This document shows positions 17,504 to 63,932 of a DNA stretch of 64,000 nt, in pieces. Where the stretch lies: contig BSWA01000002.1 in NCBI GenBank assembly GCA_036245095.1, positions 2,691-66,690 of the forward strand, written 5' to 3'. Below the pieces are notes generated by a model. That model had not been told where the DNA came from. It did not search any database and worked only from the letters and a program-made list of their open reading frames with translations. Every line of letters begins with the position of its first letter. The first letter of the stretch is position 1. The stretch comes from Candidatus Improbicoccus devescovinae. GTDB lineage: Bacteria > Bacillota > Clostridia > Oscillospirales > Acutalibacteraceae. The translations under genes were made by a program, and so were the position numbers.

Positions 17504-17506
17504 TAG

Positions 17507-29189: not shown

Positions 29190-29966
29190 TCAGGCTACAT
29201 TACATAATTTCGCATCAGCCTCCCGTCTGGCGATCCGAGCACGTTCGTTCGCCTCATCTCTTGCTTTTTCAAGGCGAGCTCTTTCAAGAGAACCAACAAA
29301 CTGCTGATCACTTAGATTTTTATCATAATCATAAAGATGGCTACTTGGTGCAACTTCAACAAAGGTTTCCCAAACGAGGTCTCGACGCCCAGATCGTTCA
29401 AGAGTTCCATTAGGAGAATATACGTCAAAAGTTCCTAAATATGCCGATGATATAATAAATTTACTACCAATTTCTCTAGAAATATCTTTAATAAAATTAA
29501 AAGTTTCAGTATAATTTACAATCAAATTTGTACGTTGATCACATTTTGCACCGACAAACATAATCGTACCATTACAACCCCGGGTCTGAGCAAATGCCTT
29601 AGAAAATATTCTATTTATATACTCCCTGCGGGTGTCACCGCACGGCAACGTCATATCAACTACAATTAACGTGATATGTGTACCTGGTAAAAGTTCAGCA
29701 ACTTTCTCAAAATAATACTTCCATCCAGGGGTATCATAAACCTTTAAGGAATAGTCTTTATATCCTTCTTGATAAAAACTAAAATCGTCTGTGGGATCTT
29801 CACAAACAAAATTATCATTTTTCAGCCTTTCAATAATTGCAGTTTTCCCTTCTGTTTTATCCCCTACAACAACAATTTTTACATATTTCACATGAGCCTG
29901 TATTTTTGAATAACCAAATATAAAACAGCTAAATAACACAACCAATAATTTACTGAGTTTAAACAT
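29190..29966 (-). CDS. signal-peptide-bearing Ras/Rab-like small GTPase with polybasic tail and C-terminal CNVA (CaaX-like)
   Basis: Signal peptide ..YSKIQA|HV, G1 VVVGDKTEGKT, G3 VYDTPG, G4 VGAKCD, G5 SSA. Tail ..RARIARREADAKLCNVA-stop. AAGGAAGG RBS. Confidence 0.7.
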   Translation of the reverse strand: MFKLSKLLVVLFSCFIFGYSKIQAHVKYVKIVVVGDKTEGKTAIIERLKNDNFVCEDPTDDFSFYQEGYKDYSLKVYDTPGWKYYFEKVAELLPGTHITLIVVDMTLPCGDTRREYINRIFSKAFAQTRGCNGTIMFVGAKCDQRTNLIVNYTETFNFIKDISREIGSKFIISSAYLGTFDVYSPNGTLERSGRRDLVWETFVEVAPSSHLYDYDKNLSDQQFVGSLERARLEKARDEANERARIARREADAKLCNVA

Positions 29967-31100: not shown

Positions 31101-31323
31101 TTTCAATTCAACTTTATTATACAACATTCTTAAATATTTTGTGATAATGCAAAAAATAGTTTAGACTTTGGAATTAGAAAATTTATTTATTTTGTACAAA
31201 ATATATAAAAAAATATGTCTAATTAATCGATTTTTTGTTTTATATGTTGCAAATATATATAAATATTATAGAATGTCGTCACTGTTGAGAAATATTATGT
31301 ATTTTTTTGTAAGGAGTGTGACT

Positions 31324-35402: not shown

Positions 35403-36182
35403 ATGTCGCTTTTAGGATCAATTGTTTCAAATTATAGAACCAGTGTATTATATGATTTTAGTTTAGTAGTTAAAGCCAATATATTTATATTGAAGGTAGT
35501 AGAAAAAGATGTAACCGATTTGTTTACTAAGGGGCCATTTGGTTGGAGCGTTAAAGAAGCATTACCATTGCAATTAAATCCAACAAGTATAAAGCGTAAT
35601 CGAGGTTCACAGATGAAATCCGCGGATGATAGTAAAAAAGGCTTAAGGTCGTTTGATGGTCCTGCTGTTACAACACCTGATAATTATGTATTACTGTTCC
35701 CCGATAGAGCCCAAAAAGCTGAGGATCTTGAATTGGACTTAACATTTGACATATATGATGAATATAATATGCGAACTATGAATGGCACTATTCCTCTTGA
35801 TATATCTTTAGCTGATCCAGATGTAGTGATTATTGAACACTTATTTTTATATGCAAATACGAATAACTACTGGGCATTATTCAAATGGGGCCCGTTAGTT
35901 TATTTTGGAAAAATTAGAAGAGTAAACTTTGAATATACTACATTTTCTGCTTATGGTGAACCATTAAAAGGCAAGGGAAGTCTTTCGATAGAAAAACAAT
36001 CCCTGGGAACGGACGATGATGGGACAGAGCTAGAACCAGGATTACGTACGTTGGGAGCAGTTCCGTGGGCGGAAATAACTGGTTACACGAAAGCTCAAAC
36101 AGCTTTAGTTGTAGGTATGCGCATAGCAGAAGAAGCAGCAGCATTAACAGTTCCGACAATTTTACGTACAATTGGGAATTAG
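35403..36182 (+). CDS. contractile-injection-system / phage tail tube-like protein (orphan)
   Basis: Motif string LQLNPTSIKRNRG ... LELDLTFDIYDEY ... DVVIIEHLF ... ALFKWGPLVYFGKIRRVNFEYTTFSAYGEPLKGKGSLSIEKQ. This resembles the F-x-F-N-P ... L-F-F-D ... F-x-W-G ... F-x-G ... F-T-x-F ... G-x-P-x-R-A pattern of CIS tube/tube-initiator domains. Confidence 0.45.
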   Translation: MSLLGSIVSNYRTSVLYDFSLVVKANIFILKVVEKDVTDLFTKGPFGWSVKEALPLQLNPTSIKRNRGSQMKSADDSKKGLRSFDGPAVTTPDNYVLLFPDRAQKAEDLELDLTFDIYDEYNMRTMNGTIPLDISLADPDVVIIEHLFLYANTNNYWALFKWGPLVYFGKIRRVNFEYTTFSAYGEPLKGKGSLSIEKQSLGTDDDGTELEPGLRTLGAVPWAEITGYTKAQTALVVGMRIAEEAAALTVPTILRTIGN

Positions 36183-36258: not shown

Positions 36259-39200
36259 ATGTCAGCAAAAAAAGCAAAGCTTGAACTGAAGACTGACGAA
36301 ACAGTGGCATCTGATGATAATCTTGAAAGTATATATACATTTTTTGAGGGCCTTGATACCAAAAATGATAAAAAGCGTTTAAGTGAAAAAGCTAAAAAAC
36401 TTAAACGTGAATGGCAAAAAGATAAATCTAACAGCCAGACAGAAGCCAAAAGGAAAGAGAGAACCTCTGATAAAGAGTTTAGCGAATCAAATATATCCCA
36501 AAGAGCTTTGGTGTTTAGTTATAGACAACGAACATTTAAAAAGTTACTTGACGCAATGGGTATAAAAGAAGTCAAACATGATAATTCTACTAATATTGAC
36601 GCATTGACTACAGACGCAGATGACCGAACAAGTTTTAAAATCTTGTTAGACGCTATATTTGAGGAAACTCATACAATGGAGAATGAAATAAACAGCAAGC
36701 CTGACCTACGGACTGAGATGAAAAAACACGTAAATACCAAAGATGAGAAGAAAAATAAAAAATATGATAGAGAAGAAGAGGAATCTCTGGAAAGCCAACA
36801 AAAGAATGAAAAAAAGAGATTTGAAAAAACTATGAAAGAACGCAAAGAAGAATTTGAAAGACTTAATGAGATAGTTACAGAAAGAATAGAAATTAGTAGT
36901 GACCTTAAGTTAACAGATGTAATTGCAAAAGTAAATGAAAGAAGAACAAAAGAAACGAAAGAAATAAATAAAAAAAGACAAAAAGAAATGGCCAAAATAA
37001 ATGCAGATAGATTAAAAGAACGTAAACGCAATGAGATACGCAATAAACTTAAATCTATTTTCCCGTGGAACAAAAAGGAAGAGGAAGAGGAAGATGATAT
37101 CAAAGAGGATAGCCCTCCTAAAAAATTGGAATCAACTATTCCAGACATAAAAATTGATACCATTGAAAAACCTGAAAATGAAGCTGATGAATCCAAGTAT
37201 AAGGCGCATTATATGGCTACAGAAGAATTTATAGTTGATTTTTGCAATAAAATTGAAAAAAAATTTTTAGAAATAAAATCAATCAAGAAAATTTTTAATA
37301 TTAAAAAAGATCTGATAAACTGTGTTAGTTCGTACAAAGATAAATGCAAAGAAATAGAAAGATCTCAGTTAGCTAAAAAATCATTTGAAGACATCAAATC
37401 AAATGAAAAATTATATACTAATTATGGCAAAACACGAATAGATGGATTTTTACGAAATGCAAGCAATGCTTATGAATTTGGTATTCAAAATTTTTTTTCA
37501 AATTTAATTAAAGAATTAATTGGCATACATTCAGAAATTATAATCATGAAAGAAGAGCTAAATACGTCGGTAGAGAATCCTCCTGATGAATTGGATGAAG
37601 TTGATGACATTACGGATTATTTGGGTGCTAATTTACAAGCTTTCAATGAAATAGTACAATCTTCTTCTAAAAAATTAGAGGATGAAAATGCTCCAAAAGC
37701 TGATGTAGATGAAGAGCCTTCTGCCAAACCAAACGAACTAAAAAATACTCCTGCAAATATGCATGAAGAAAATGAATATCAAACGGCACGATTAGTTAAT
37801 TTGGCTACGTTTGCATCTGTGGTTGCTCCTATGTTGAACGTATCAGTGGATACAGCCAAGCCGGTGATTACCAGGGATATGAAATATAAAGCGCTATTTG
37901 ACTGCAAAGATGCAGTTAGATTCCATGAGTTAGAAACGAGGCCATGTATCGAGCAAATAGCTACTCTAGAACAATCTAAAGCAGACAAGCCAGACACCGC
38001 GACGAATGACCAAGATCAATCTCAAGCTTTACTTAAGAGGTTGGACAAAATACAAAGTAAATACCAAGAGGAAGCAAATTCAAACGAAAAAAAAGTGAAA
38101 GATTTTTTTGCTATAGTAGTAAAAAGAAGTTTAACAAAATCTAGACATCTTCACTTGTTGAAGCTATATGATGAAATTAAAAAATATCTTGATAAGACGT
38201 ATCATGAACAATTAATAACATGGTCGAAGACTGCAATTAATTCTACCAAACAGACAACTGAGGAAGATCCCAAGACTACTAGCCCAGTAGCCACCCAGCC
38301 AGCTGCCGGAAGCGTTACGCCTCCTGCTACTCCGTCTGAGCAGGTTGGACAACAGCAAGCAACAGAAAAGCCAAAAATAGATCCAACGTACATTCATTAT
38401 TTTTTACAGGAAGATACTACTCAAGTAAAAAAATTAGAAAATATATTTTTAAAATCAGACTGTGATTTTGAAAAAATTCAAGAAACCTTTGTAAAGATTC
38501 CTGCGGCTAAAGAAATGAAAAAATCAATATTAAAGATAGACGAGGCGAAAGAAACCGAACAAGAAAAATGGTTTAATAGAAATGACGTATTTTTAACATG
38601 TTTCGGGACGTTGGCTTCGGCTGCGGCAATATATTGCAAATCATCAAAAACATCTAATAAATTTGACGAAATTAAAGAAAAATATCAAGCATATCTTAAA
38701 ATTGGTGGAATCGCTGTTGAGGAGGCAATTAACCAAGTTTTTCCTCTTACTATAATCGAGCCCCAAAACCAAACACAAGAAACAACCCAAAAACCAACCA
38801 ACGAACCTCCGAAAAAACAACTTTTAGAGGAAGACTTGAAACGACATTTTGATACTCAACAAGTAGAGTTAGCACTTTTTGCCCAAAATCTATTCTCTGG
38901 TTTCAATGATGACATAAGAGACAACCTAGCCACGCAGTCTATCAGCATAGACAAAATAAAACAATCAATAGAGTCAGACAAACCAGCGAGCTCATATTCT
39001 GGCGAGTATATTACAGCTATTATGGAACAACCGACTGGTGAGGAAGCTTATAAATATGCTAAAGAAAAAGATAAAAAACATCCAAGATTATATAACCTAT
39101 CAGAACCAGCACCAAATGCTCCTGAAACAGATAAACTACCACAACCCGATGGTGAAAATAAGGCGCCGGTCGATCCACAACAGAAGACCCATATTTGCTT

Positions 39201-40395
39201 AGGTAAGCGAATATATCAGGAAGCTTTAGTCAATAATTTAAGCTTGTTTGCTGCTATTGTAGCCCGAAAATTATCGTTACCTGATGAAATTACAAATGCG
39301 AAGGATGTAAAATATAAAAAACTTTATGATATCGTATGTTATCCAAAAATATACCTTAAGCCAGTAACTAATATAATAGATAATGAAAAATCTGATGCCG
39401 ACAACGCAAAGAATATTGCTGCTATAGATAAATTTATGAAGCGTTGGGAAGCAATAATTGCAGACAGTAAAAAAGCATTATCTCAATTTATTTCTGAAGA
39501 TTTATTAAAAGAAGAAAATATAAGTGAATCGCAAGGAAAAGATATTCAAGAGCTATTTAACAAAATTAATAATCATTTAGAATCACAATATAATAAACCA
39601 GAAATTAAACCAAAGAATCAGCCTGACATAGCAAATCTTAAAAAAATGGACTTAGTCTCATATGCGTTATACTCTTGTTTTATTAATTATAGCTTACCTG
39701 AGGCAAAACAGGTTGCTAGTGGAGCCACATTTACTGACGTGATTAACACTATCAAATCTGACAGAGGAATACTAAAAGACCTGAATAATCTGATATTAAC
39801 TGAGGGTACAGATGCAGTAAATATTCTCTATAAATTAATAAATAGAAATGAAATAGTGATTGCCTATTACTTAAATGATGTATTATTTTCTGCTATCAAT
39901 GCTAGAGAAAAAAATGATAATTTTATTAAAACAAAAAAAGATTTCAATGAAAAATACGAGGCCTTAATGTTACAACGAATAAAATACAAAACGCAAAAGA
40001 CAGAACAATTAGAACTCATGTTTGAACAAATAGCATTAGAAATAGACGATATACAGGCTCGCAAAGAAACTACGGCTGGAACCTGCGCACCAGGCGACTC
40101 CTATACCCCATATATAACAATATTTAATCAAATAACCAATTTTTGGAATGAAATAACAAACAAAGAAGATAACCTGGTAACAACAACTAATCGTCCTGAT
40201 ACTAAAATAAAACATTATTTTAATACAGAATTTATAAATGAAATAAATAAAGAAGAAAAAGCTGAGAAAATATATGAACTCATAAAAGCAAAAAAACATG
40301 CATCAAAATTAGAAATCATTAGTAAACTGTTAACAGAACTAGAAAAAAAGAAAACTGCGGCAGCAGATACTCAGAATCCACCTCCTAGCACTTAA
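36259..40395 (+). CDS. giant K/E-rich, largely helical lineage-specific protein (1378 aa) with an internal module duplication
   Basis: AGGAG RBS and a 4.1-kb ORF. Two divergent modules (..ARLVNLATFASVVAPML..DMKYKALFD.. and ..EALVNNLSLFAAIVARKL..DVKYKKLYD..). Short Pro-rich linkers. Confidence 0.8.
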   Translation: MSAKKAKLELKTDETVASDDNLESIYTFFEGLDTKNDKKRLSEKAKKLKREWQKDKSNSQTEAKRKERTSDKEFSESNISQRALVFSYRQRTFKKLLDAMGIKEVKHDNSTNIDALTTDADDRTSFKILLDAIFEETHTMENEINSKPDLRTEMKKHVNTKDEKKNKKYDREEEESLESQQKNEKKRFEKTMKERKEEFERLNEIVTERIEISSDLKLTDVIAKVNERRTKETKEINKKRQKEMAKINADRLKERKRNEIRNKLKSIFPWNKKEEEEEDDIKEDSPPKKLESTIPDIKIDTIEKPENEADESKYKAHYMATEEFIVDFCNKIEKKFLEIKSIKKIFNIKKDLINCVSSYKDKCKEIERSQLAKKSFEDIKSNEKLYTNYGKTRIDGFLRNASNAYEFGIQNFFSNLIKELIGIHSEIIIMKEELNTSVENPPDELDEVDDITDYLGANLQAFNEIVQSSSKKLEDENAPKADVDEEPSAKPNELKNTPANMHEENEYQTARLVNLATFASVVAPMLNVSVDTAKPVITRDMKYKALFDCKDAVRFHELETRPCIEQIATLEQSKADKPDTATNDQDQSQALLKRLDKIQSKYQEEANSNEKKVKDFFAIVVKRSLTKSRHLHLLKLYDEIKKYLDKTYHEQLITWSKTAINSTKQTTEEDPKTTSPVATQPAAGSVTPPATPSEQVGQQQATEKPKIDPTYIHYFLQEDTTQVKKLENIFLKSDCDFEKIQETFVKIPAAKEMKKSILKIDEAKETEQEKWFNRNDVFLTCFGTLASAAAIYCKSSKTSNKFDEIKEKYQAYLKIGGIAVEEAINQVFPLTIIEPQNQTQETTQKPTNEPPKKQLLEEDLKRHFDTQQVELALFAQNLFSGFNDDIRDNLATQSISIDKIKQSIESDKPASSYSGEYITAIMEQPTGEEAYKYAKEKDKKHPRLYNLSEPAPNAPETDKLPQPDGENKAPVDPQQKTHICLGKRIYQEALVNNLSLFAAIVARKLSLPDEITNAKDVKYKKLYDIVCYPKIYLKPVTNIIDNEKSDADNAKNIAAIDKFMKRWEAIIADSKKALSQFISEDLLKEENISESQGKDIQELFNKINNHLESQYNKPEIKPKNQPDIANLKKMDLVSYALYSCFINYSLPEAKQVASGATFTDVINTIKSDRGILKDLNNLILTEGTDAVNILYKLINRNEIVIAYYLNDVLFSAINAREKNDNFIKTKKDFNEKYEALMLQRIKYKTQKTEQLELMFEQIALEIDDIQARKETTAGTCAPGDSYTPYITIFNQITNFWNEITNKEDNLVTTTNRPDTKIKHYFNTEFINEINKEEKAEKIYELIKAKKHASKLEIISKLLTELEKKKTAAADTQNPPPST

Positions 40396-51197: not shown

Positions 51198-52099
51198 TAG
51201 ACCTCCTCGGAAATTAATTTTCAAAATTAATTAATCCGCACAACAAAGACATTCTTAATTTAAACCGAGTACGTCGATTACGGTATTTGTTTGCTACTAT
51301 TTTAAAAACTTTAATTTTTGCATTTATGTTTTCAATTATGATTCGTTCTTTTGAAATACGCCGATTTTCAGATTTTTCTTCGGCAGTGAGTGTGCTTTTT
51401 CTTGGTTTTTCTTTGGAGTTTCGCTGTTTTTGTGTAATCTCAAAATTCCCTGATAACCGCTGTCTCCTTGGACTTTTTTATCATTTGAAATCGCATATCC
51501 TATACTTTCCTCATAAAGTTTAAAGTCGTGAGTTTTTCCTTCAGCATGGGCAATACAGATAATATCTTTTGTTTGTCGATTTACAATTAGTTGCGTGTTT
51601 ATGGTATGCCTTTTTTTCTTTCCTGAATACCACTGACGCTGTTTTTTTTAGGGCGTTCGACCGGACTTTCCATAACATCAACAACCACAATTTCTATCTC
51701 GTTATTTTCAAGTAATGCTTTTTTGCCGGGTAAACTGAATTTTCTGCTTTTAATCAGTGTATCTTCGACCCAAACGATTGTGTCGTGCGTTGTTGCTTCG
51801 CCAACCTCAAACTCAAATGCCAATTCTTTTTGTGTCACATACTGTCGCCAGTACTTCAAAGCCATAAATAATTGATCTTGAAGTGTTAATTTTGTGTGCC
51901 TGCCTCGACGTTTGTGCTTTTCAGCGTAAGCTATTTGAAGCTGAGCAATCATCGCACTGTAAGTTTCTTTTTTTACACCTATTAATTGCTTAAAATCTGC
52001 ATCTTGTAATCTCATAGCTTTTTCATATCTTGTCAATTTTCATCACCGATATTATTAAATCATATTTAGACATAAAAATCCAATTTCCGAAGAGGTCTA
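51198..52099 (-). mobile_element. IS-A copy 2 (902 bp); orfA intact, orfB frameshifted
   Basis: Both terminal repeats are present (TAGACCTCCTCGGAAATT ... AATTTCCGAAGAGGTCTA). orfA is 51599-52036. Relative to copy 3 it has a one-base shorter homopolymer (T5 vs T6 on the plus strand, about 51406-51410) plus one substitution. Confidence 0.85.
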
Positions 52100-52120
52100 T
52101 TATTTTTCGAAGGAATCAAA

Positions 52121-52468
52121 ATGAGCGAAAATTTTAATCTTAATCAATTTTTAACCGAAGAAATGTTCTTGAGTTTGGCGAGTTGTATATTGATCGTTAC
52201 TGGTGGTGTTAAATTTTTCAAGAATTATACAAATTTAAGTCCGCTTTGGCTGAATTTAATAATTTCAAGTATTGTAACAATCGTAAGAATCGCCTTTGTG
52301 AACTGCACCCCAAAATTTAGACAAAAGTCTAAGTTTAACAAAGGGGTGCACTTCATTGTGGGCGATTTTTCATTTAATGGCATAGTTTTGGGAATTTTCA
52401 ATTTAATTCCTATTTTGCTTGGGTCAACAGGCACGTATGAATTTGCAAAGAACATAATTGGAGGTTAA
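52121..52468 (+). CDS. holin-like small membrane protein (intact only in this copy)
   Basis: 115 aa with three hydrophobic segments. It overlaps the start of the lysin gene by 11 nt, a typical lysis-cassette layout. Confidence 0.55.
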   Translation: MSENFNLNQFLTEEMFLSLASCILIVTGGVKFFKNYTNLSPLWLNLIISSIVTIVRIAFVNCTPKFRQKSKFNKGVHFIVGDFSFNGIVLGIFNLIPILLGSTGTYEFAKNIIGG

Positions 52469-53282
52469 GAATATGAAATTTAACGGAATTGATGTCTCAA
52501 AGTGGAACGTCAATATTAATTGGCAAAAGTCCAAAAACAATGGCGTGGAGTTTGCAATAATCAGGTCCGGCTGGGGAAAAGAATCACCTAACCAAAAAGA
52601 TAAATTTTTCGAACAAAACTACGCAGGTGCAAAATCAGCAGGGATTTGCATAGGTTCATATCATTATTCTTATGCAGATTCCGCAAACGATGCCGTTTTG
52701 GAGGCTGAATTTTGTCTAAAAAATATCGCAAACAAGCAATTTGAATACCCAATAATTTTTGACATTGAAGATCGTACGATGTTGGCGCTCACAAATCGCC
52801 AAAAAACCAACATTTGTAAGGCTTTCTGTGAAAAAATCGAAGATTCAGGCTATTATGCAATGATTTATATGAACCTAAATTGGCTTCAAAATTATCTCAA
52901 TAAAGATGAACTTTTGAATGAATTTGATTTGTGGCTCGCTCAGTGGAATACCACCAAACCTTCGATAAATTGCGGGATTTGGCAGAAGTCTGATCAAGGC
53001 AAAATCGATGGAATTAGCGGAAATGTTGATTTAAACGAAAGCTACAAAGATTATCCGCAGATTATGAAAACTAATGGTCTAAATGGATTTTAAAAAAACG
53101 AGTCAATTTCAGTAAACCAACCGAATTACCACACTTACACTGTGGTCACAGATGATACATTATGGGGCGTTGCCTTGATGAAACTTGGAAGCGGTACAAG
53201 ATGGCGTAAGATTGCGGAACTTAACGGCATTATCGGCGATAAAATTTATCCCGGACAAGTTTTGAAAATTCCTAACAGCTGA
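52458..53282 (+). pseudogene. GH25 muramidase-LysM endolysin split by an in-frame TAA (53091-53093)
   Basis: Identical to 14787-15611. 63 further in-frame codons encode the LysM domain. Confidence 0.7.
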
Positions 53283-53283
53283 G

Positions 53284-53691
53284 GTGATTTTGTTGGATAC
53301 GACGCAAAGATTTAAAATTCAGAGAATGCGAGAAGATGGTGAAAGCTATACTAAAATTGCAGGAGTTACTGGAGTTTCAGCAAACACAATCAAGTCGTTT
53401 TGTAGACGGAATAATTTTAAAGTTTTGAAAATAAAAGATGATAAATCTCAAAATTTTTGTAAAAACTGCAGCAAAGCGCTGATTCTGGATAAAAAAACTA
53501 AACCAGAGAAATTTTGCTGTAAAACTTGTAAAAATCGTTGCTGGAACAAAAATCGAAATATCTATACAAATAAGCCCAAAAATATAGTAATTTGTAAGCA
53601 TTGCGGCAAGAAATTTACAGATTATCAAAATAGCAAAAGAATTTATTGCAGTCATCAATGTTACATTAATTTTCGTTACAAAAGCCCATAA
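53284..53691 (+). CDS. small HTH plus zinc-ribbon protein (copy 2)
   Basis: Identical translation to 14378-14785. Confidence 0.6.
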   Translation: MILLDTTQRFKIQRMREDGESYTKIAGVTGVSANTIKSFCRRNNFKVLKIKDDKSQNFCKNCSKALILDKKTKPEKFCCKTCKNRCWNKNRNIYTNKPKNIVICKHCGKKFTDYQNSKRIYCSHQCYINFRYKSP

Positions 53692-53767
53692 ATATTATTA
53701 CTTGGAGCCGTAAAACGGCTCCTTTTTCATGCTTAATTTTAAATTAAATTTTGGAGGATTTTTTAAT

Positions 53768-54561
53768 ATGAATGAACTTACAATTTTTAAAAATGAGGAA
53801 TTTGGCGAAATTAGAACAATTTTAATTGAGGGTAATCCTCACCTCATTTTGTTAGCATTGATGTCGCAAAAAATTTAGATTATGCCAACCCAAGTAAAGC
53901 AGTTCACGACCACTGCAAAGGTATTTCCAAGTTGGGAATACCTTCGGTTGGAGGAATTCAAGAAACGAACGTAATCTCTGAAGGCGATGTTTATCGTCTG
54001 ATAATCAAAGCAGCTGACCAGAACAAAAATTCTGAAATAAAATTAAAAGCAGAAAAATTTGAACGTTGGGTTTTCGATGAAGTCTTGCCATCCATCCGCA
54101 AACACGGAATGTATGCCACAAAAGAACTACTAAATAATCCTGATTTGCTCATCGAAATGGCACAGGCTTTAAAAATTGAGCGTGCTGAAAAAGAATATCT
54201 GCAAATTCAGTCTAAAAAAGATAAGCCGAAAGTAATTTTTGCAGATGCTGTCTCAGTTTCCGATGGCACAATTTTAATTGGCGAACTCGCAAAAATTCTG
54301 AAAGGTAACGGTATCGAAATCGGACAAAATCGTTTATTCGAAAAGCTTCGTCAAGACGGATATCTCATAAAACGTAACGGTACTGATTACAATATGCCGA
54401 CACAAAAATCGATGGAACTGGAACTTTTCAAAATAAAAGAAACCGCAATTACTCATTCTGACGGGCACATCACTGTAAATAAAACCACTAAAGTTACAGG
54501 TAAAGGTCAGCAATATTTTGTAAATTACTTTCTTGGCGTGGTGCGGCTAAATGACAGATAA
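53768..54561 (+). pseudogene. phage antirepressor (BRO-N + KilAC) with the 5-bp CCTCA duplication frameshift at 53837-53846
   Basis: Identical to copy 1. Removing one CCTCA restores ...IEGNPHFVSIDVAKNLDYANPSKAVHDH... Confidence 0.75.
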
Positions 54562-54733
54562 ACAATTTGAACGCGAAAAAAATTATCAAATTTCAATTTT
54601 ACTTATAAAATCTATGCTTAAAAACAGCGTTATTTCCAAAAAAGATTTTGATGTAGTTAATGACAAATTAATCAAAAAATACAAACCAATTTTTGGTGAG
54701 CTAAATCACCTGAAAAACCGCATTAAACCTTGA
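54551..54733 (+). CDS. small hypothetical protein (copy 2)
   Basis: Identical translation to 13336-13518. Confidence 0.45.
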   Translation: MTDKQFEREKNYQISILLIKSMLKNSVISKKDFDVVNDKLIKKYKPIFGELNHLKNRIKP

Positions 54734-54781
54734 CTAATAGCCTTAATATATGGATATATATGAATGGAGGATTAAAAAATT

Positions 54782-56131
54782 ATGAAGAAAAATATTACAA
54801 AAATTGAGCCAAAAAACTGTCACTTTTTGAATAAAAAATGTGTTGTGGCTTACGCCAGAGTTTCTGACGGCAAAGAGGCGATGCTCCATTCATTGTCAGC
54901 GCAAGTCAGTTATTACAGCGATTATATCCAAAATCATAAAAATTGGGAATATACAGGAGTTTACATTGATAAAGCCTATACCGGCACAAAAGGCGAGAGG
55001 CCTGAATTTCAAAAGCTTATTCAAGACTGTCGTAAAGGCAAAATCGATATGATTATTTGTAAGTCAATCACTAGATTTGCGAGAAACACGGTGGATATGC
55101 TCTTAATTACCAGAGAACTCAAAAATTTGAGTGTTGACGTCTATTTTGAACAGGAAAAAATTCACAGTCTGAGTGAAGATGGCGAGCTGATGCTTACAAT
55201 TCTTGCGAGCTATGCACAAGAAGAATCAAGAGTTGTTTCTGAAAATTGCAAATGGAAACTGAGAAAGAAATTCAAATCAGGGATACCGAACAATTTTAAA
55301 ATTTATGGATATGAATTAAAAAACGGCAGACTAGAAATAACTACTAAAGAAGCCAAAATCATAAAAATAATTTTTAAAAATTACCTTGAAGGATTAGGCA
55401 AAAACGCCATTATGAAGAAGCTTAATAAACTTAAAATAAAGCCGAAAATCAGTGATTTTTGGAACGAAAGCACAATTGATAAAATTTTAAGAAATGAAAA
55501 ATATGTCGGCGATATGCTTTTTCAGAAAACATACGTCAATAATCATCTTGAGAAGAAAAAGATTAAAAATAGCGGTGAATTGCCAATGTATCTGGTCAAA
55601 AACAGTCATGAAGCAATAATTGACAGAGAAATTTTTGATAAAGTTCAAAATGAAATTAGAAGAAGAGCTGAAATTTACAAGCCTAAAAACAAACTAAAAT
55701 CAGAATCAAAATACCTGTTCACAAGCAAGATAAAATGCGAAATCTGCGGTAAAAATTATAGAAGGAAAATTAATGGCGTCGGAACAAAATATGAAAAAGC
55801 AGTTTGGATTTGTTCATCGTTTAACCTAAAAGGCAAATTTGAATGCAGTTCAAAACAAGTTCCTGAGGAAATTTTGAAATCAAAAATAGCAGAAATACTT
55901 AATTTATCGGAATTTAACGAAGAAAAATTTAAGGAAAAATTCAAAGAAATAAATCTGATTGAGATTTCCAAAGCTGGAAGTCTCAATTTTATTTTTCAGA
56001 ACGGGACAATTATGCGAAAAGTGTGGAGTTACAAGTCTCGAAGTGAATCTTGGACGCCAGAAATGAAAGAAAAAGCAAGACAAAAATCTTTAGAAAGGAG
56101 CAATCAAAATGCCTGCAACAACGGCAGTTAG
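54782..56131 (+). CDS. large serine recombinase (copy 2)
   Basis: Identical translation to 11938-13287. Confidence 0.85.
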   Translation: MKKNITKIEPKNCHFLNKKCVVAYARVSDGKEAMLHSLSAQVSYYSDYIQNHKNWEYTGVYIDKAYTGTKGERPEFQKLIQDCRKGKIDMIICKSITRFARNTVDMLLITRELKNLSVDVYFEQEKIHSLSEDGELMLTILASYAQEESRVVSENCKWKLRKKFKSGIPNNFKIYGYELKNGRLEITTKEAKIIKIIFKNYLEGLGKNAIMKKLNKLKIKPKISDFWNESTIDKILRNEKYVGDMLFQKTYVNNHLEKKKIKNSGELPMYLVKNSHEAIIDREIFDKVQNEIRRRAEIYKPKNKLKSESKYLFTSKIKCEICGKNYRRKINGVGTKYEKAVWICSSFNLKGKFECSSKQVPEEILKSKIAEILNLSEFNEEKFKEKFKEINLIEISKAGSLNFIFQNGTIMRKVWSYKSRSESWTPEMKEKARQKSLERSNQNACNNGS

Positions 56132-56139
56132 AGCAATTT

Positions 56140-56487
56140 ATGAAAAAAGCAATTTTATACTGCCGCGTGGCAACAAGTAACAATGCCAATAAAGCATTAG
56201 ATCTTCAAGAACAAAACACAAGGGATTACGCAGCACTGTGCGGTTTTGAAGTTGTTAATGTGATCAAAGAAATTGGTAAAAAACAAGATGGATTTGAAAA
56301 AATTTATGAATTAATTAAACATTATAAAATAGACGCGATAATAGCCGAAAATCTAAGCCGTTACAGCCGTTCAACTTCAAAAATTATAAATTTTGTTGAA
56401 ACATTGACGGCAGAAAACATAAAAACATTGATGGTGGCGGACGGAGATTTGCAAAATATTATACCGCTCTTAAAATCAATGAAATAG
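56140..56487 (+). CDS. small degenerate serine-recombinase catalytic-domain protein (copy 2)
   Basis: Identical to 11582-11929. Confidence 0.55.
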   Translation: MKKAILYCRVATSNNANKALDLQEQNTRDYAALCGFEVVNVIKEIGKKQDGFEKIYELIKHYKIDAIIAENLSRYSRSTSKIINFVETLTAENIKTLMVADGDLQNIIPLLKSMK

Positions 56488-56856
56488 TTATATTTTTGTG
56501 GACGATGAACATGAAATATCATAATCATATGACCGTTGGATTTTGAAAAATTTTAGTATGTCCTTTTTCGTTTTTTGATCGGCTTTTTCATATGAAATTA
56601 GTGTATTCTCTAGTGCACGCTCTATGCTTAACATAAGTGATCGCATTTCTTTATCGCTAATACGAGAAAGCCTATTCCATTCGATTTCTCCATAAGGCGA
56701 TAGTGCCTTAATATCAGAATAATCTCCAACAACCGATGAAGGTCCTCGTCCAGCGTGTAAATTTTCTAATTCCGTATTATTTCTAACACCATTTACAGCA
56801 AGAAGTTTTGCTAAATCTTTTAATTCTTGTAATCTTTCTTCACTGATATCACTCAT
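56488..56856 (-). CDS. hypothetical protein (122 aa, copy 2)
   Basis: Identical translation to 11213-11581. Confidence 0.6.
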   Translation of the reverse strand: MSDISEERLQELKDLAKLLAVNGVRNNTELENLHAGRGPSSVVGDYSDIKALSPYGEIEWNRLSRISDKEMRSLMLSIERALENTLISYEKADQKTKKDILKFFKIQRSYDYDISCSSSTKI

Positions 56857-57128
56857 GAGACTTTGCCCCTCCGTGTTTTATTACTTAAATTATGCTCTAT
56901 TTTCACAATTTTTTTTACGGTTGCCGTGAGATGGATTTTTTCGCAAAAATGGCATATTTACTGCATTTGTTAGCCTGGTGCACAATGAAACTTTTCCTCC
57001 GAGGTGTGTGCACAAATGCGCTTTTGGGTTTAAAAATTTAAAAAATCAGACTTTAAAATTTTCTCCTAAACGTTAAAACCCGCAGTATTACTGCGATTCT
57101 GGCTTGTATCAAAATTATGGTTTGATGA

Positions 57129-57214
57129 TGGTGCCGACAGTGGGACTTGAACCCACACACAGTCGCCTGCAACGGATTTTGAGTCCGTCTCGTCTACCAT
57201 TCCAACACGTCGGC
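57129..57214 (-). tRNA. tRNA-Leu (anticodon CAA), long variable arm, CCA encoded
   Basis: Reverse complement GCCGACG..ACGGA-CTCAAAA-TCCGT..GTGGG-TTCAAGT-CCCAC-TGTCGGC-A-CCA. 86 nt. Confidence 0.9.
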
Positions 57215-57388: not shown

Positions 57389-58291
57389 TAGACCTCCTCG
57401 GAAATTAATTTTCAAAATTAATTAATCCGCACAACAAAGACATTCTTAATTTAAACCGAGTACGTCGATTACGGTATTTGTTTGCTACTATTTTAAAAAC
57501 TTTAATTTTTGCATTTATGTTTTCAATTATGATTCGTTCTTTTGAAATACGCCGATTTTCAGATTTTTCTTCGGCAGTGAGTGTGCCTTTTCTTGGTTTT
57601 TTCTTTGGAGTTTCGCTGTTTTTGTGTAATCTCAAAATTCCCTGATAACCGCTGTCTCCTTGGACTTTTTTATCATTTGAAATCGCATATCCTATACTTT
57701 CCTCATAAAGTTTAAAGTCGTGAGTTTTTCCTTCAGCATGGGCAATACAGATAATATCTTTTGTTTGTCGATTTACAATTAGTTGCGTGTTTATGGTATG
57801 CCTTTTTTTCTTTCCTGAATACCACTGACGCTGTTTTTTTTAGGGCGTTCGACCGGACTTTCCATAACATCAACAACCACAATTTCTATCTCGTTATTTT
57901 CAAGTAATGCTTTTTTGCCGGGTAAACTGAATTTTCTGCTTTTAATCAGTGTATCTTCGACCCAAACGATTGTGTCGTGCGTTGTTGCTTCGCCAACCTC
58001 AAACTCAAATGCCAATTCTTTTTGTGTCACATACTGTCGCCAGTACTTCAAAGCCATAAATAATTGATCTTGAAGTGTTAATTTTGTGTGCCTGCCTCGA
58101 CGTTTGTGCTTTTCAGCGTAAGCTATTTGAAGCTGAGCAATCATCGCACTGTAAGTTTCTTTTTTTACACCTATTAATTGCTTAAAATCTGCATCTTGTA
58201 ATCTCATAGCTTTTTCATATCTTGTCAATTTTCATCACCGATATTATTAAATCATATTTAGACATAAAAATCCAATTTCCGAAGAGGTCTA
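57389..58291 (-). mobile_element. IS-A copy 3 (903 bp), the only apparently intact copy
   Basis: Both terminal repeats, orfA 57791-58228, A8 slip site, and an orfB frame open to 57405 (..GDSGYQGILRLHKNSETPKKKPRKGTLTAEEK..LLCGLINFEN). Confidence 0.85.
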
Positions 58292-58603: not shown

Positions 58604-60697
58604 ATGCCTGCAAAGGAAGAAATTAAGGAACAACTTAAAAATAAAGCTTTTATAATTAGGGTTAAATATTGCTGGCTTGCTAGTAAGTGGTTTATTAAGT
58701 TTAGAATGAAGAATGGAGATAATTGTAAATTAAAATCAACAGGGATTTATGATGCTAGTACTGGTAGGTTGGATTTAGATAAACTTAAAATACAAGTAAC
58801 TGAAGAATATGTTACAGATAAAAAGAAAAAATCAAAGATTAACACTACGTTTTTTGCAAACAGTTTAACATTTTATATAGTAAATAAAAGTAAACCTAAA
58901 TTATTAACCAAAGAAACTGATATTACAGAATATGTAAATGGAGACAACGTCAAGGGATATATTTTGTTATTAGAAGCGGAAAGAGCTATCCGTTTAAAGA
59001 ACGGAACTTGTAGAATTCAAGCATTGGATGAATCTGATAAATTTATATATTTATCACATAGCATTTATTTAGAGAAAAGTGAATTTAACAGATGTATACC
59101 ATATTCAAAAAAATACAATACTTTTTTAAACAGAGCTTTGAAATTAGTTAATAAACAATTGCGTAAATATTTTAATATATATTGTGATCATCATAAAGTA
59201 GAAGAAATATTTAAAATAAGTATATCAGAGATGGTATGCAAGGAAATAGTAATTAGCCAGTTGGAATTGTGTAGAATTAATGAAAAAGGGCAAATAGATA
59301 GGGTTGCTTCCGGCGCGGGCACGCAGGCACAAACCTTGGAAGTTCAACCACTAAACAAAGGTGGAAGGTTCCTATTACGAATACATCAAAAAATTCATGG
59401 TATTTTTTATAATATAAAAACAGGTCCAACATATAACCCTCAACACAACACTATTTATTTACCCAATAGACCAGGAGGAACAAAAAAAACAACAGAAGAA
59501 CATAAAAACGAACCAGATTCATCAGCTCACCAGGGAGGGACACAGGCACCCCCAAGAGGAAACCAACATGCACCAGAGGAAACATCAGGGGCATCATCGC
59601 CCATCAGCCAACCACCCGGGGGGCATCACACTGGGATAACCCCGCCTCTCCCCTCAAGTAGCCCAAGCGCTGTATCGGAGGATCCATCGCCGCCGCCTGA
59701 TCACGGTACAGATCCTGTTCGGTCTACGTCGCAAGTTCCCGCGCCGGATCCTGAGCCTGAGCCTGAGCCTGAGCCGGTTCCTGTTCCGGTGGCTCCTAAG
59801 GCCACCCATCAGGATGCAGCTCCACCTACTGTTTCGGTCCATGTTCCTCATCCTGCTGCTGCGTCTGTGACTTCTTCGTCTCATGCTCCTGCTACTGCGC
59901 CTGCGCGTGTGTCTTTTGCGGCTCCTGCTGCTGCGCCTGCGCGTGTGCCTTTTGCGGCTCCTCCTAAGGCTACTCCTCCTGCTCAGCCAGCTGCTGCGCC
60001 AGCTCATGCTGCTTCTGCGGCTGCGACTCCTGCTTCGACTCCAGCTTCTGCTCCTCCGCCGGTTCGTGCGGCATCTCCGGCGGCGACACCTGCTTCCGCT
60101 CCTACGCCTGCTTCTTCTCGTGTTTCTTTTTCTGATACTGCTTCGGCTCCTTCGCATCCAGCTGCTGCGCCGTCTCATGCTGCTCCTACGGCTGCTTCTG
60201 CTTCGTCTCCTGCTTCTGCGCCTCCGCCGGTTCGTGCGGCTTCTCCGGCGGCGACACCTGCTTCGACTCCTGCTTCTGCTCCTCCGCCGGTTCGTGCGGC
60301 ATCTGCGGCTGCGTCGCCTGCTTCTGCTCCTGATCCATCTCCTGACCCAGATGATTTTGCTATCGATTTAAGCGCTCCAGAACCATCAGAGCTTACGGTG
60401 CACTATAACGGGGAATCCATTACCGTCACAACAACAAAAAAAATTGAGGGTATTGACTTAAATGCCTTTTATAAAAAGATAAAAATTCTTGAGGATAATG
60501 GGGGATTTGTTTTTATGCAGGATAATAACATTGATAGATATATTGAATTTTATAATAAAGACTCAACAGCATTTGCCCGTTGCGTGGAATTTTACAGTAA
60601 TTCTGACCGTATTGCAGAACTTAGAAAAGTTGGCCAAGAATTAAGAGGTGTTGTAAAAGAAATAAAACGTACATCTGAAGCAGTACCAAAATCATAA
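58604..60697 (+). CDS. lineage-specific protein (697 aa): N-domain, about 280-aa Pro/Ala/Ser-rich repeat region, small C-domain
   Basis: GAGGTGG RBS. Repeats ASAPPPVRAASPAATPAS x3. The region from about 59500 to 60360 is strikingly GC-rich for this genome. No signal peptide. Confidence 0.8.
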   Translation: MPAKEEIKEQLKNKAFIIRVKYCWLASKWFIKFRMKNGDNCKLKSTGIYDASTGRLDLDKLKIQVTEEYVTDKKKKSKINTTFFANSLTFYIVNKSKPKLLTKETDITEYVNGDNVKGYILLLEAERAIRLKNGTCRIQALDESDKFIYLSHSIYLEKSEFNRCIPYSKKYNTFLNRALKLVNKQLRKYFNIYCDHHKVEEIFKISISEMVCKEIVISQLELCRINEKGQIDRVASGAGTQAQTLEVQPLNKGGRFLLRIHQKIHGIFYNIKTGPTYNPQHNTIYLPNRPGGTKKTTEEHKNEPDSSAHQGGTQAPPRGNQHAPEETSGASSPISQPPGGHHTGITPPLPSSSPSAVSEDPSPPPDHGTDPVRSTSQVPAPDPEPEPEPEPVPVPVAPKATHQDAAPPTVSVHVPHPAAASVTSSSHAPATAPARVSFAAPAAAPARVPFAAPPKATPPAQPAAAPAHAASAAATPASTPASAPPPVRAASPAATPASAPTPASSRVSFSDTASAPSHPAAAPSHAAPTAASASSPASAPPPVRAASPAATPASTPASAPPPVRAASAAASPASAPDPSPDPDDFAIDLSAPEPSELTVHYNGESITVTTTKKIEGIDLNAFYKKIKILEDNGGFVFMQDNNIDRYIEFYNKDSTAFARCVEFYSNSDRIAELRKVGQELRGVVKEIKRTSEAVPKS

Positions 60698-60710
60698 GGA
60701 GGCTTTAACT

Positions 60711-62660
60711 ATGAATAATAATAATGATTTGTTTAGATGCAAGGATGGCTTGATATATCCAATTTGTGAAACAAAAGAAGATTTAAAGAAGTTATCAAAA
60801 ATTTCCGAAATAACTATTGATTTTTCTAAAGATTTTAAAGACGAAAACGGAAGCGGGGGAAAAGCGACCGGTTTTTCACAAGAAAATTATGAAAAATTGC
60901 AAGGCTGGCAAGGATTATCATCTCTTAAAACTATGACCATAAAGAATATTGATAGTGACACATTATTAATGCATTTTAAAGCCAATACATTAACTCCTTC
61001 CAAGTTTGGGCGAAGTCTATCAAATATATTGGATCAACTTAAGCAGGCTATTTTAAAAAATAATAATACAGATATAGAAAAAAATTATAAGTCATTAGAA
61101 TCGTTTGTGCCATCCCAATGGAAGTGGATAAACCCTATTCATCTTATTATTCAAGGCAAGGGCGAGTACTATTGGATACCTGCAGAAGCTAAGATAAAAT
61201 CAAAAAATAATTCCCAAATGGAACTTTTATTTAAAGAACAAATTCCCACATATTCCGAATTAAAAATCCCTAGTCCTGATGAAGAAGAAAAGGCTAGAAT
61301 AGAAATAGAAGCAAAATATAAAAAATTCTTAAAAATTTTTAAAGACATACCTGCAGAAGGAGTTATAAGAAAAGATGTTGATTCTAACGGTGGGAAAGTC
61401 GCGGTTTTTGGCGATTTGCATGGCGATCTCATATCAACTAGAGGCATTGTAAAAGAAGCAGTAAAAATCATAATTGATGGAGGGCAAGTGGTGTTTTGTG
61501 GAGATTATATAGATAGAGGCCCAAATAATCTTGATGTATTAGAACTAGTTTTTGGGCTTAAAACAAAGTATCCAAAGTATGTGACTCTATTAAGAGGGAA
61601 CCATGAAGTTGCTGCCCAAAATAGCCGCTATGGCTTTGCAGCTCAATGTGAAAAAATCTTGGGTAAAAAATTTGGAACGTTAGTTTGGAAAGCTGCAAAC
61701 TTGATATTCGACTTAAAATTAGCTTATTGTGCTGTTATTAATAAAAAACAATTTGTAGCACATGGGGGATTACCTAATGTTGATAATGAAGCAGAATTAT
61801 TTGAAGGGACAAACAATACTGATCTCCCTAAATTATTTGGTCAAGACAATTCAGATATCTTTGATACTTACACTTCCGAAATGGTAGTGGCTGGATTATC
61901 CGATAGCAAAGAGACGGCAGATCGATTTTTAAGTCATAATAATAAACCAGATAACGTTAATATGATGTTTGATGATTTAATGTGGAGTGATCCTATGTCT
62001 CGTAGCGCCCACCGATACCAAGATAGTAATCGCCGCTGTGGTCATCTTTATGGACCAAAACAAATTAACGGATTCCTAGGCCGGCATGGCTTTACACAGA
62101 TCGTACGTGCACATCAGGTAAACGATGAAAAAAGGGCATACGTCACAGGAGTGCTTACTGTTTTTTCGTCAGCTGGATATAGTGAGCGGTATTGTGCATT
62201 GAAAGATGATAAAAAAGCTATTGCTATCCAACAAGACTTGATTAGTAACGGAAAAGGGTATATAGGCGATTTAGCAATAATTAACCCAGACACAAATGAA
62301 ATTACTCCAATGAAGTATACCACAGCGCAGATTAATGCTTTCGGGCAAAATGAAGACACCACAGAATTAAGTCAGGCAGGAATCACTACTCAAGAACCAA
62401 TACCTGAGCATAAATTTGAATTTAAAATAACTGCCGATCTAAAAACAAAATTGCTCGATTTATATAAAAAAGCGCTTGAAATCAGCAAATCAGCTTGCGT
62501 ATTACCAACGAGTATTATGACTACAGAAGAAAAAAAAAGACAGAAAAATAATAAAGAGGACTCTGAGTTAAATAAAAAAAGACCGGCAAGGGTTTTAAAT
62601 AAATATATGCATGCTGCGAAAATGTATCTTGATACTGCTGGTATACGGATACCTAAATAG
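60711..62660 (+). CDS. eukaryotic-type PPP-family Ser/Thr protein phosphatase with N- and C-terminal extensions
   Basis: GDLHGD, GDYIDRG, LLRGNHE, AHGG, LMWSDP, VRAHQV and VFSSAGYS in the canonical PPP order. AAGGAGG RBS 14 nt after the upstream stop. Confidence 0.8.
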   Translation: MNNNNDLFRCKDGLIYPICETKEDLKKLSKISEITIDFSKDFKDENGSGGKATGFSQENYEKLQGWQGLSSLKTMTIKNIDSDTLLMHFKANTLTPSKFGRSLSNILDQLKQAILKNNNTDIEKNYKSLESFVPSQWKWINPIHLIIQGKGEYYWIPAEAKIKSKNNSQMELLFKEQIPTYSELKIPSPDEEEKARIEIEAKYKKFLKIFKDIPAEGVIRKDVDSNGGKVAVFGDLHGDLISTRGIVKEAVKIIIDGGQVVFCGDYIDRGPNNLDVLELVFGLKTKYPKYVTLLRGNHEVAAQNSRYGFAAQCEKILGKKFGTLVWKAANLIFDLKLAYCAVINKKQFVAHGGLPNVDNEAELFEGTNNTDLPKLFGQDNSDIFDTYTSEMVVAGLSDSKETADRFLSHNNKPDNVNMMFDDLMWSDPMSRSAHRYQDSNRRCGHLYGPKQINGFLGRHGFTQIVRAHQVNDEKRAYVTGVLTVFSSAGYSERYCALKDDKKAIAIQQDLISNGKGYIGDLAIINPDTNEITPMKYTTAQINAFGQNEDTTELSQAGITTQEPIPEHKFEFKITADLKTKLLDLYKKALEISKSACVLPTSIMTTEEKKRQKNNKEDSELNKKRPARVLNKYMHAAKMYLDTAGIRIPK

Positions 62661-63188: not shown

Positions 63189-63782
63189 ATATCAGAATCT
63201 TATTCATACAAAATTATTAAGTGGGTGGAGGACACACTTATAAAGAACGGAAATTTCGCACTTCCTGGTCGAAAAGCGCTACGGTCAAAAAAACAGAAAA
63301 AAGAATGAGCAAAAAATAAAAAATCGAAAAACCAAATAGAAAAAATATTATTCTGGCAAGAAAAAACGGCATACATTAAAGACTCAATTAGTTGTGAACA
63401 AAAAAGACAGAACGGTTATTTGCACTGATTTTGCAAATAGCAGAAAGCATGATTTCAGACTTTTTAAAGAATCTAAACTCAAGATAAACAGCAAAATAAA
63501 ATTACTGATTGATACTGGATTTCAAGGAATTCATAAATTTCATAAAAATTCAAAAATTCCAAAAAAGAAAACTAAAAAACATCCGCTTACAAATCCAGAA
63601 AAAGAAGAAAATCGAGAAATTTCAAGCCAAAGAATAAAAATTGAAAATGTTATTGTTTTTATTAAACGTTTTAAAGTTTTATCCGATAAATACAAAAACC
63701 GTAGAAAACGTTTTAGTCTCCGGTGTAATTTGATCTCCGGTTTGTAATTTTGATCTGATTGTTTAGTTTGGAAAGAAGTCTA
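63189..63782 (+). mobile_element. IS-C-type element, 5' truncated (right end intact)
   Basis: Homology starts inside the HTH region (..YKIIKWVEDTLIKNG). ORF 63394-63747 is the DDE C-terminus. Ends GTTTAGTTTGGAAAGAAGTCTA. Confidence 0.75.
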
Positions 63783-63783
63783 T

Positions 63784-63932
63784 TAGACCTGCTCTGAGAC
63801 TGAATTATTTTTGTAAATTTCGAGGACACAGGAGTACAGAAACGTGTAGCCATCCTGCTTGTGTGTGCGTAGTTTCAAGCATCACATTGGCGATGAAATT
63901 TGCAAAAATAATTCAGTTTCAGGATAGGTCTA
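63784..63932. mobile_element. MITE copy (149 bp)
   Basis: TAGACCTGCTCTGAGACTGAATTATTTTTGTAAATTT ... AAATTTGCAAAAATAATTCAGTTTCAGGATAGGTCTA. Confidence 0.8.

Follow-up and report, generated by a model that had tools for sequence, protein, structure and literature searches.

A divergent eukaryotic-type PPP phosphatase with orphan extensions in an Oscillospirales-like clostridium, a candidate host-directed effector

The phosphatase gene and its product

The 64-kb stretch of contig BSWA01000002.1 analysed here, hereafter called the window, carries a two-gene cassette (58604-62660) that encodes a 649-aa protein of the PPP family of Ser/Thr phosphatases (hereafter the PPP protein) and, just upstream, an orphan open reading frame (ORF). 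The cassette lies in a mobile-element-rich region beside a tRNA-Leu gene, with an insertion sequence (IS) on either side (Table 1). The start codon of the PPP gene is the ATG at 60711 and its reading frame is unbroken over 1950 nt. Its Shine-Dalgarno sequence overlaps the TAA stop codon (60695-60697) of the upstream ORF, and the gap between the two ORFs is only 13 nt. This suggests co-transcription or translational coupling, and the two genes probably belong to one operon. Both the GC content at third codon positions (GC3, 0.258) and the relative synonymous codon usage (RSCU) distance (0.063) of the PPP gene are inside the range of the housekeeping genes of the window. Judged by its Shine-Dalgarno sequence and its codon usage, it is a bacterial gene, and this housekeeping-like codon usage implies that any transfer must be old.

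The only Pfam family detected in the PPP protein is Metallophos (PF00149), which covers residues 229-470 with 68.5 bits for a gathering cut-off of 21.5; no STPPase_N, TPR, EF-hand or Kelch module was detected. An AlphaFold model based on an alignment of 44 sequences reaches a predicted local distance difference test score (pLDDT) above 90 over most of residues 190-355 and 420-490. By its pLDDT profile, the folded core extends over about residues 181-535 and is wider than the residues 225-500 or so proposed by the initial annotation. In the same way, the flanks, first described as about 220 and 150 residues devoid of any recognisable motif, are indeed motif-less, whereas their lengths have to be corrected to residues 1-180 and 536-649. 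A search of 5.8 billion proteins, using as query a chimera of both PPP flanks and of the N- and C-terminal domains of the upstream ORF product, retrieved no homologue of the flanks and matched only the proteins of the window itself. According to the model, the C-terminal tail consists of a disordered linker followed by Lys-rich helices (residues 575-595 and 605-642). A putative nuclear localisation signal in this tail (KR-x11-KKRPA) was rejected because the same pattern is present in most Lys-rich ORFs of the window. The core itself is enlarged by an insertion: the HGG and WSD motifs are 71 residues apart, whereas this spacing is 30 in PP1 and has a median of 31 among 146 relatives, i.e., about 40 extra residues. 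A spacing of at least 60 is found in only three of these relatives.

Table 1. Features of the PPP gene, of its product and of the rest of the window (positions in nucleotides of the window unless residues are indicated)
Feature	Position	Strand	Basis or remark
PPP protein gene, 649 aa	60711-62660, stop included	+	ORF listing; Pfam Metallophos E=1.3e-18
N-terminal extension, residues 1-180	60711-61250	+	pLDDT 25-66, low-confidence fold; orphan
PPP catalytic core, residues ~181-535	61251-62315	+	pLDDT mostly 80-96 (AlphaFold)
Acidic/polar lineage-specific insertion, residues ~354-415, HGG to WSDP	61770-61955	+	pLDDT 42-52
C-terminal tail, residues 536-649	62316-62657	+	AlphaFold secondary structure, pLDDT 33-75
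GDLHGD	residues 234-239		PPP protein
GDYIDRG	residues 264-270		PPP protein
RGNHE	residues 295-299		PPP protein
AHGG	residues 350-353		PPP protein
LMWSDP	residues 423-428		PPP protein
VRAHQV	residues 465-470		PPP protein
VFSSAGYS	residues 484-491		PPP protein
Metal ligands	D235, H237, D265, N297, H351, H468		PP1-alpha D64, H66, D92, N124, H173, H248
Catalytic His and Asp partner	H298, D268		PP1-alpha H125, D95
Phosphate-clamp arginines	R269, R441		PP1-alpha R96, R221
Asp-Pro pair stabilising second clamp arginine	D427-P428		PP1-alpha D208-P
Shine-Dalgarno AAGGAGG, 8 nt before PPP ATG	60696-60702	+	read from sequence
Upstream ORF, 697 aa	58604-60697	+	ORF listing
RVSF motif 1 (ARVSFA), residues 435-438 of upstream protein	59906-59917	+	regular expression, shuffle test
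RVPF tandem copy (ARVPFA), residues 447-450 of upstream protein	59942-59953	+	regular expression
RVSF motif 2 (SRVSFS), residues 506-509 of upstream protein	60119-60130	+	regular expression, shuffle test
IS copy left of cassette, HTH_Tnp_4 transposase (frameshifted), 18-nt terminal inverted repeats	57389-58291	-	inverted repeat; Pfam
Related IS right of cassette, 5'-truncated	63200-63810	+	BLASTP among window ORFs, ~51% aa identity to left copy; repeats
tRNA-Leu(CAA), borders mobile-element-rich island	57129-57214	-	ARAGORN, Rfam
Ras-family small GTPase	29190-29966	-	Pfam Ras 8.8e-10, Arf 4.7e-8, Roc 3.6e-7
Large orphan ORFs, 1153, 668, 808 and 1378 aa	3360-6821, 6907-8913, 31168-33594, 36259-40395	all +	
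IS copies	2300-3110, 15863-16713, 17300-17614, 20212-20840, 51217-52039, 57389-58291, 63200-63810		

A eukaryotic-type catalytic core

All the PPP signature blocks listed by the initial annotation were located in the expected order, between residues 234 and 491. Alignment with PP1-alpha shows that no catalytic residue has been lost, and eight of these residues (D235, H237, D265, R269, N297, H298, H351 and H468) are invariant or nearly so in alignments of 44 and 100 sequences. The catalytic site and the gene are both intact, and from its sequence the PPP protein is predicted to be an active Ser/Thr phosphatase with a two-metal site. The residues typical of the eukaryotic enzymes are also found. 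In the alignment, W425-S-D427-P428 pairs with W206-S-D208-P of PP1, and R441 with R221, the following residues being Cys, then Gly (RRCG versus DRGV). Motif 6 reads FSSAGYSERYC versus FSAPNYC. The proposal that 'AGYS' is the counterpart of APNY has to be corrected: in the beta12-beta13 loop, MAFFT aligns Y272-C273 of PP1 with Y494-C495 ('ERYC') instead, so that Tyr-Cys is kept and the loop has a four-residue insertion. Furthermore, seven of the ten okadaic-acid contact sites described in PP1 by Kerk et al. 2023 (PMC10214084) are kept (equivalents of R96, Y134, W206, R221, V250, Y272 and C273), while those of I130, E275 and F276 are changed; from these contacts, an intermediate toxin sensitivity is predicted. 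V250 and C273 are missing from the three archaeal eukaryotic-like PPPs aligned in the same study, unlike in the PPP protein.

Comparisons with known structures and families lead to the same assignment. The best phmmer matches in the PDB are BSU1 (5e-32), PP1 (about 5e-23), PP5, rdgC/PPEF and PP2A, with E-values from 5e-32 to 1e-18, and they cover both halves of the domain (residues 230-356 and 413-500). The best 50 Foldseek matches of the model in the PDB are all eukaryotic PPPs, with a TM-score of about 0.7 to PP1/PP2A. The NCBIfam models of PrpA/PrpB, ApaH and PrpE match residues 228-306 only, with 19-24 bits for cut-offs of 176-340. Lambda phosphatase (12.9 bits) and the bacterial PPP ORFs of about 210-310 aa from loci L001-L018 likewise match only the first 75 residues or so of the domain. 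As first stated from the sequence, the last three blocks are not those of ordinary bacterial PPPs: no WSDP-type motif is present in lambda phosphatase or in the bacterial ORFs of these loci, and a loose search for a RAHQ-type pattern in these ORFs retrieved only [KI]GSHEY, in four of them.

Phylogenetic analysis was carried out by a distance method only (neighbour-joining, NJ, with Kimura distances over 254 columns, three random taxon samples and 100 bootstraps). It groups the PPP protein with named eukaryotic PPPs, apart from the ApaH, PrpA, lambda and other ordinary bacterial enzymes, in 98-100 of the 100 bootstraps for all three samples. The PPP core is thus of eukaryotic type according to four independent lines of evidence, i.e., sequence, fold, diagnostic residues and phylogeny, which bears out the initial annotation. 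Within this group, the PPP protein stands alone on a long branch close to where the eukaryotic radiation begins, the branching order being a secondary point. It does not nest within PP1, PP2A/4/6, PP2B, PP5, PPEF or PPKL, and the bootstrap support of every sister stays below 40% in the NJ trees.

The search for relatives gives the same picture of isolation. An exhaustive phmmer search over 1.84 billion representatives retrieved 9667 relatives at E<=1e-3 and only three at E<=1e-30, the query itself included. The two others, P0166 (1.8e-44) and P0167 (7.7e-34), were rejected as close relatives: their scores are inflated by two tandem PPP domains, each about 30% identical to the query. Below these, the scores level off at 95-115 bits per domain, and the PPP protein is about 30-40% identical to any relative. 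It is a singleton in 90%-identity clusters, and no orthologue was found in 185,579 GTDB species genomes or in JGI metagenomes, where only unrelated bacterial PPPs sharing the word 'VFCGDYID' were retrieved. An organism name was available for six of the 20 top matches looked up, and each is that of a eukaryote, in most cases a protist (Leishmania, Ancora, Ditylenchus, Paratrimastix, Tritrichomonas and Flabellula). Accessory modules typical of eukaryotic PPPs (STPPase_N, EF-hands, PPP5/TPR, Kelch) are carried by 18 of the 100 nearest relatives. On these comparisons, the PPP protein is best placed as a very divergent orphan lineage within the eukaryotic-like PPPs that belongs to no eukaryotic subfamily.

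Eukaryotic-like PPPs whose motif 1 starts with GDLHGDL[IV]S were also seen on other bacterial contigs (L019/L020, 1266-4397; L021, 7001-8266 and 8682-9062). They include P0015 (1043 aa), from an Alphaproteobacteria MAG (metagenome-assembled genome, GCA_017476405.1), and P0025 (421 aa), which is encoded directly after dnaG-rpoD and adjoins a Pkinase fragment.

The upstream ORF and the rest of the window

The protein encoded upstream of the PPP gene has a P/A/S-rich disordered centre of 301 aa (about 59489-60391) between orphan N- and C-terminal domains. It has no Pfam match above threshold, no PHROG or PADLOC family and no homologue among the 5.8 billion proteins searched; its single-sequence structural model (pLDDT 37) is unusable. 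The high GC content of the ORF (61%, with a GC3 of 0.33) is due to its amino-acid composition. Three of the four phenylalanines of the P/A/S-rich centre sit in RV[SP]F motifs, two of which fit the PP1-docking consensus [RK]-x(0,1)-[VI]-{P}-[FW]. Among shuffles that preserve composition, a fraction of 3e-4 contained at least two RVxF matches and none of 200,000 contained three RV.F, a statistic that is weakened by the internal repeats of the protein. In the PPP protein, the equivalents of four residues of the RVxF pocket of PP1 are Q347 (I169), Q463 (L243), L482 (V264) and L510 (L289), while F257, R261, C291 and F293 of PP1 fall in poorly aligned segments. The pocket is therefore not clearly conserved, so that the RVSF motifs, if functional, could engage either the neighbouring phosphatase or the PP1 of a host. 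The Legionella protein LpPIP is reported to hijack host PP1 (PMC12313075).

By its motifs, the upstream protein may be a mimic of PP1-interacting proteins or a regulatory partner of the PPP protein. It is even conceivable, while improbable, that the operon as a whole reproduces in a bacterium the PP1-type holoenzyme of eukaryotes, made of a PPP catalytic subunit and a disordered partner. In such a case, the upstream protein may dock on the neighbouring phosphatase and steer it, or it may hijack host PP1 with the PPP protein acting in parallel. Either form would mean that a Gram-positive symbiont of protists delivers a paired phosphatase module into its host.

The IS to the left of the cassette has copies that are 100% identical at 15863-16300 and 51602-52039, which ties the PPP region to the same genome as the rest of the window. 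A composite transposon is not supported because the two flanking IS are different variants and one of them is truncated. Overall, the 64 kb hold at least seven full or fragmentary IS copies of HTH_Tnp_4 type, several of them frameshifted. Such a proliferation of IS is typical of recently host-restricted bacteria. A promoter and terminator scan gave counts that were not above those of shuffled sequences, and Rfam recognised three tRNAs and nothing else in the window. Just 3' of the PPP stop codon, the segment 62680-62860 has about 43% GC, versus about 32% for the genome; neither an Rfam match nor a convincing ORF was found in it. An inverted duplication of about 5.6 kb (about 11192-16713 and 51217-56877, the arms being about 35 kb apart) was also observed. 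The two arms encode copies, 100% identical to each other, of a GH25 lysozyme, an ANT/Bro antirepressor, a large serine recombinase and a small resolvase-like ORF, together with an IS copy. This duplication may mediate inversion of the intervening segment or may consist of two copies of a prophage remnant.

The window has about 32% GC and encodes, among others, GatA, GatB, TopA, SpoIVB, a DacB-type carboxypeptidase, PyrD and a P-type ATPase. No other sequence clusters with GatB at 90% identity; it is most similar to proteins of an Oscillospiraceae MAG (58%) and of 'Candidatus Improbicoccus pseudotrichonymphae' (56%), followed by Acutalibacteraceae (52-53%). By this marker, the encoding genome looks like that of a divergent Oscillospirales clostridium. 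The initial annotation had also pointed to a Ras-like GTPase as another eukaryote-like gene of the window, and this gene is indeed recognised by Pfam. The N-terminus of its product resembles a Sec signal (MFKLSKLLVVLFSCFIFGYSKIQA, KD19 1.72). The adjoining spoIVB gene (27767-29056, + strand; Peptidase_S55, 3.3e-76) is intact; for all its symbiont-like features, the lineage has therefore retained some part at least of its sporulation machinery.

Four large ORFs have no Pfam match, even at E<=0.1, and no PHROG match. They are candidates for lineage-specific, perhaps effector-like proteins. A contractile injection system (CIS) was considered as a delivery route and rejected: the only match, to CIS_tube (35403-36182, + strand; 4.7e-6, 26.9 bits for a cut-off of 27), is sub-threshold and lies about 25 kb from the PPP gene, between gatB and the 1378-aa orphan ORF. 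The match is not backed by PHROG, and the neighbourhood showed no further CIS genes.

Possible function and relationships with known systems

The function proposed here, with a probability of roughly 0.55, is that of an effector: a Ser/Thr phosphatase directed at the host, which most likely leaves the bacterium to dephosphorylate host proteins, while its extensions and its insertion would serve in targeting or regulation. It is the genomic context that suggests export: an Oscillospirales-like GatB, a signal-bearing Ras GTPase, four large orphan ORFs and an IS-rich genome. We infer a horizontal origin, secretion and a host target. In this scenario, an ancestor of the Oscillospirales-like clostridium would have gained the gene horizontally, a protist being the most likely donor, long enough ago for codon usage to match that of the genome. 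Parts peculiar to the lineage would have been added to the conserved core, namely the N-terminal extension of 180 residues, the insertion of 40 residues and the helical, Lys-rich tail, and these most likely serve in targeting or regulation. Produced from the two-gene operon of the IS-flanked island, the protein would strip phosphates from host phospho-Ser/Thr proteins in the host cytoplasm, its orphan flanks setting substrate choice and location, as modelled on WipB, in which a PPP domain is associated with a targeting domain. The role in host contact implied by the initial annotation thus appears plausible, and the lineage and context of the gene make a host-directed role likely but unproven.

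Several observations weigh against this proposal. The PPP protein has no signal peptide, transmembrane segment or recognisable secretion signal (maximal KD19 1.28; N-terminus -0.11), and no secretion or injection system can be demonstrated in the window. A host-associated lifestyle is deduced only from relatives that are 56-58% identical in GatB, and the window keeps SpoIVB and cell-wall genes. Furthermore, the commonest sister in the trees (28-37% bootstrap) is a bacterial protein, P0015 (1043 aa), from a MAG of ruminant-gut Alphaproteobacteria (GCA_017476405.1); it resembles the PPP protein in the N-terminal half of the core only (43% over 135 residues). A eukaryotic donor is therefore not proven. 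Lastly, the enzymes called 'EukaryoticPPP-Like' are also found in free-living Clostridia, e.g., Alkaliphilus and Clostridium cadaveris, and in Myxococcales (PMC8249667); their substrates there are presumably bacterial proteins.

These enzymes of free-living Clostridia, the lack of any export signal, the fully native codon usage and the retention of a sporulation protease would all suit an endogenous signalling phosphatase, i.e., a divergent EukaryoticPPP-Like enzyme, a type already known from some Firmicutes and Deltaproteobacteria, acting on the phosphoproteins of its own cell, for instance by opposing Hanks-type kinases during growth or sporulation. Such a role is the main alternative. It is nevertheless less likely than that of an effector, since no orthologue of the PPP protein was found in clostridia or other bacteria, its scores are flat and its named neighbours are eukaryotic; as a secondary point, the sampled relatives from a bacterial context branch farther from the eukaryotic crown than it does in the NJ trees. 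In addition, its gene is accompanied in the IS-flanked island by an orphan gene instead of kinase or sporulation genes, it co-occurs with a Ras-like GTPase predicted to be secreted, and its product keeps the V250- and C273-type residues that the archaeal enzymes lack (PMC10214084). If the PPP protein acts on bacterial substrates instead of host ones, it would reveal a eukaryote-style phosphatase at work in clostridial physiology.

The serine recombinases, ANT/Bro antirepressor, GH25 lysozyme, IS copies and tRNA-Leu of the region could also suggest cargo of a mobile element or prophage, such as a NinI/lambda-type phosphatase or a part of an anti-phage or plasmid-maintenance system, unrelated to any eukaryotic host. 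The match to PHROG 246 ('NinI-like serine-threonine phosphatase', E=3.2e-14) points in the same direction; however, it is restricted to residues 219-358, the universal N-terminal half. The poor score and short span of the lambda phosphatase match, the eukaryotic-type C-terminal half of the domain and the lack of PADLOC matches for either gene of the operon make this origin quite improbable, and an anti-phage defence role was rejected for want of PADLOC matches. Even less credible is a functionless or decaying relic, or an assembly or contamination artefact joining eukaryotic DNA to a bacterial contig. It is true that the PPP protein is a singleton devoid of orthologues and that the neighbouring IS copies are frameshifted or truncated, but the 1950-nt ORF is uninterrupted, every catalytic residue is kept at only about 30-40% identity to relatives, the Shine-Dalgarno sequence is canonical, the codon usage is native, and one flanking IS has copies of 100% identity in other parts of the window.

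Few eukaryotic-type PPPs have been found in bacteria, and a role is known for very few of them. The lineage described here is intact and highly divergent, and belongs to an uncultured clostridium that also encodes a Ras-like GTPase with a Sec-like signal. It adds an independent case to the recent evidence of Gram-positive endosymbionts of gut protists gathering host-like signalling genes. Were the PPP protein confirmed as an effector, it would provide a handle on how bacteria devoid of type III, IV or VI secretion deliver proteins into eukaryotic hosts and on which host phospho-signalling pathways are targeted; the orphan flanks and the partner with RVxF motifs are candidate targeting elements.

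Comparison with known systems helps to situate the PPP protein. It shares with the eukaryotic PPPs (PP1, PP2A, PP5, PPEF/rdgC, BSU1/PPKL) the fold, the six motifs, the two-metal site, the D208/R221-type clamp and a SAPNY-like beta12-beta13 loop with Tyr-Cys. It differs from them by its low identity (32-40%), its bacterial encoding, its orphan flanks and the insertion of about 40 residues after HGG. GDxHG, GDxxDRG, GNHE and the metallophosphoesterase fold are also common to the ordinary bacterial PPPs (PrpA/PrpB, ApaH, PrpE, lambda), whereas these lack the WSDP, R221 loop, RAHQ and SAPNY types found here.

The EukaryoticPPP-Like sequences form a narrow bacterial set, with 59 members in UniProt, seven of them from Firmicutes, beside 224 archaeal sequences (Kerk et al. 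2021, PMC8249667). This wing is defined by an Asp-Pro pair, a loop arginine (usually 'RG') and a remodelled motif 6, the Asp (D208 in PP1) replacing the second Arg of the bacterial clamp (PMC8249667). All three features are found in the PPP protein. However, its named nearest neighbours are eukaryotes, the 59 sequences of the set being compared by description, and its length is twice the usual one owing to its orphan extensions.

A parallel in gene content comes from the endosymbiotic Oscillospirales of termite-gut protists, whose genomes (30-39% GC) encode PP2Ac/PPP-family proteins and kinases of eukaryote-like type as well as eukaryote-like small GTPases, many of which bear Sec signals (Takahashi et al. 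2023, PMC10579323). This study, in which Rab and Rho genes with signal peptides are reported, infers independent acquisition in each lineage; a preprint extends the endosymbiotic clade to rumen ciliates. The Ras-family GTPase of the window, with its Sec-like signal, matches these signal-bearing Rab and Rho genes of endosymbiotic Clostridia, and in both cases a phosphatase gene is found alongside small GTPases with Sec signals. Three PP2Ac/MPP_PPP_family proteins, CfP3-15_0165, RsTa-C01_0208 and NkDv07_0536, all lack a signal peptide (PMC10579323), like the PPP protein, and represent the same kind of gene in the same broad group, Oscillospirales. Orthology to them is unlikely because none is recognisable among the matches listed for the PPP protein.

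Legionella WipA and WipB provide a precedent of translocated effectors in which a PPP-fold domain is fused to targeting elements (PMC5572681, PMC5454105). Like them, the PPP protein has non-catalytic insertions or domains beside the PPP fold, host targeting being the working model, and no classical signal peptide. The Wip proteins use the Dot/Icm type IV system, whereas the window revealed no type IV genes; WipA prefers phosphotyrosine, and no Wip entry occurs among the 60 PDB sequence matches or the 50 fold matches listed. The motifs of WipB are degenerate (GDLHA, GDELVDR, NHG), whereas those of the PPP protein read as canonical and hence as more eukaryotic than those of WipB. The PPP protein is a new, independent and very divergent member of the bacterial eukaryotic-like PPPs.

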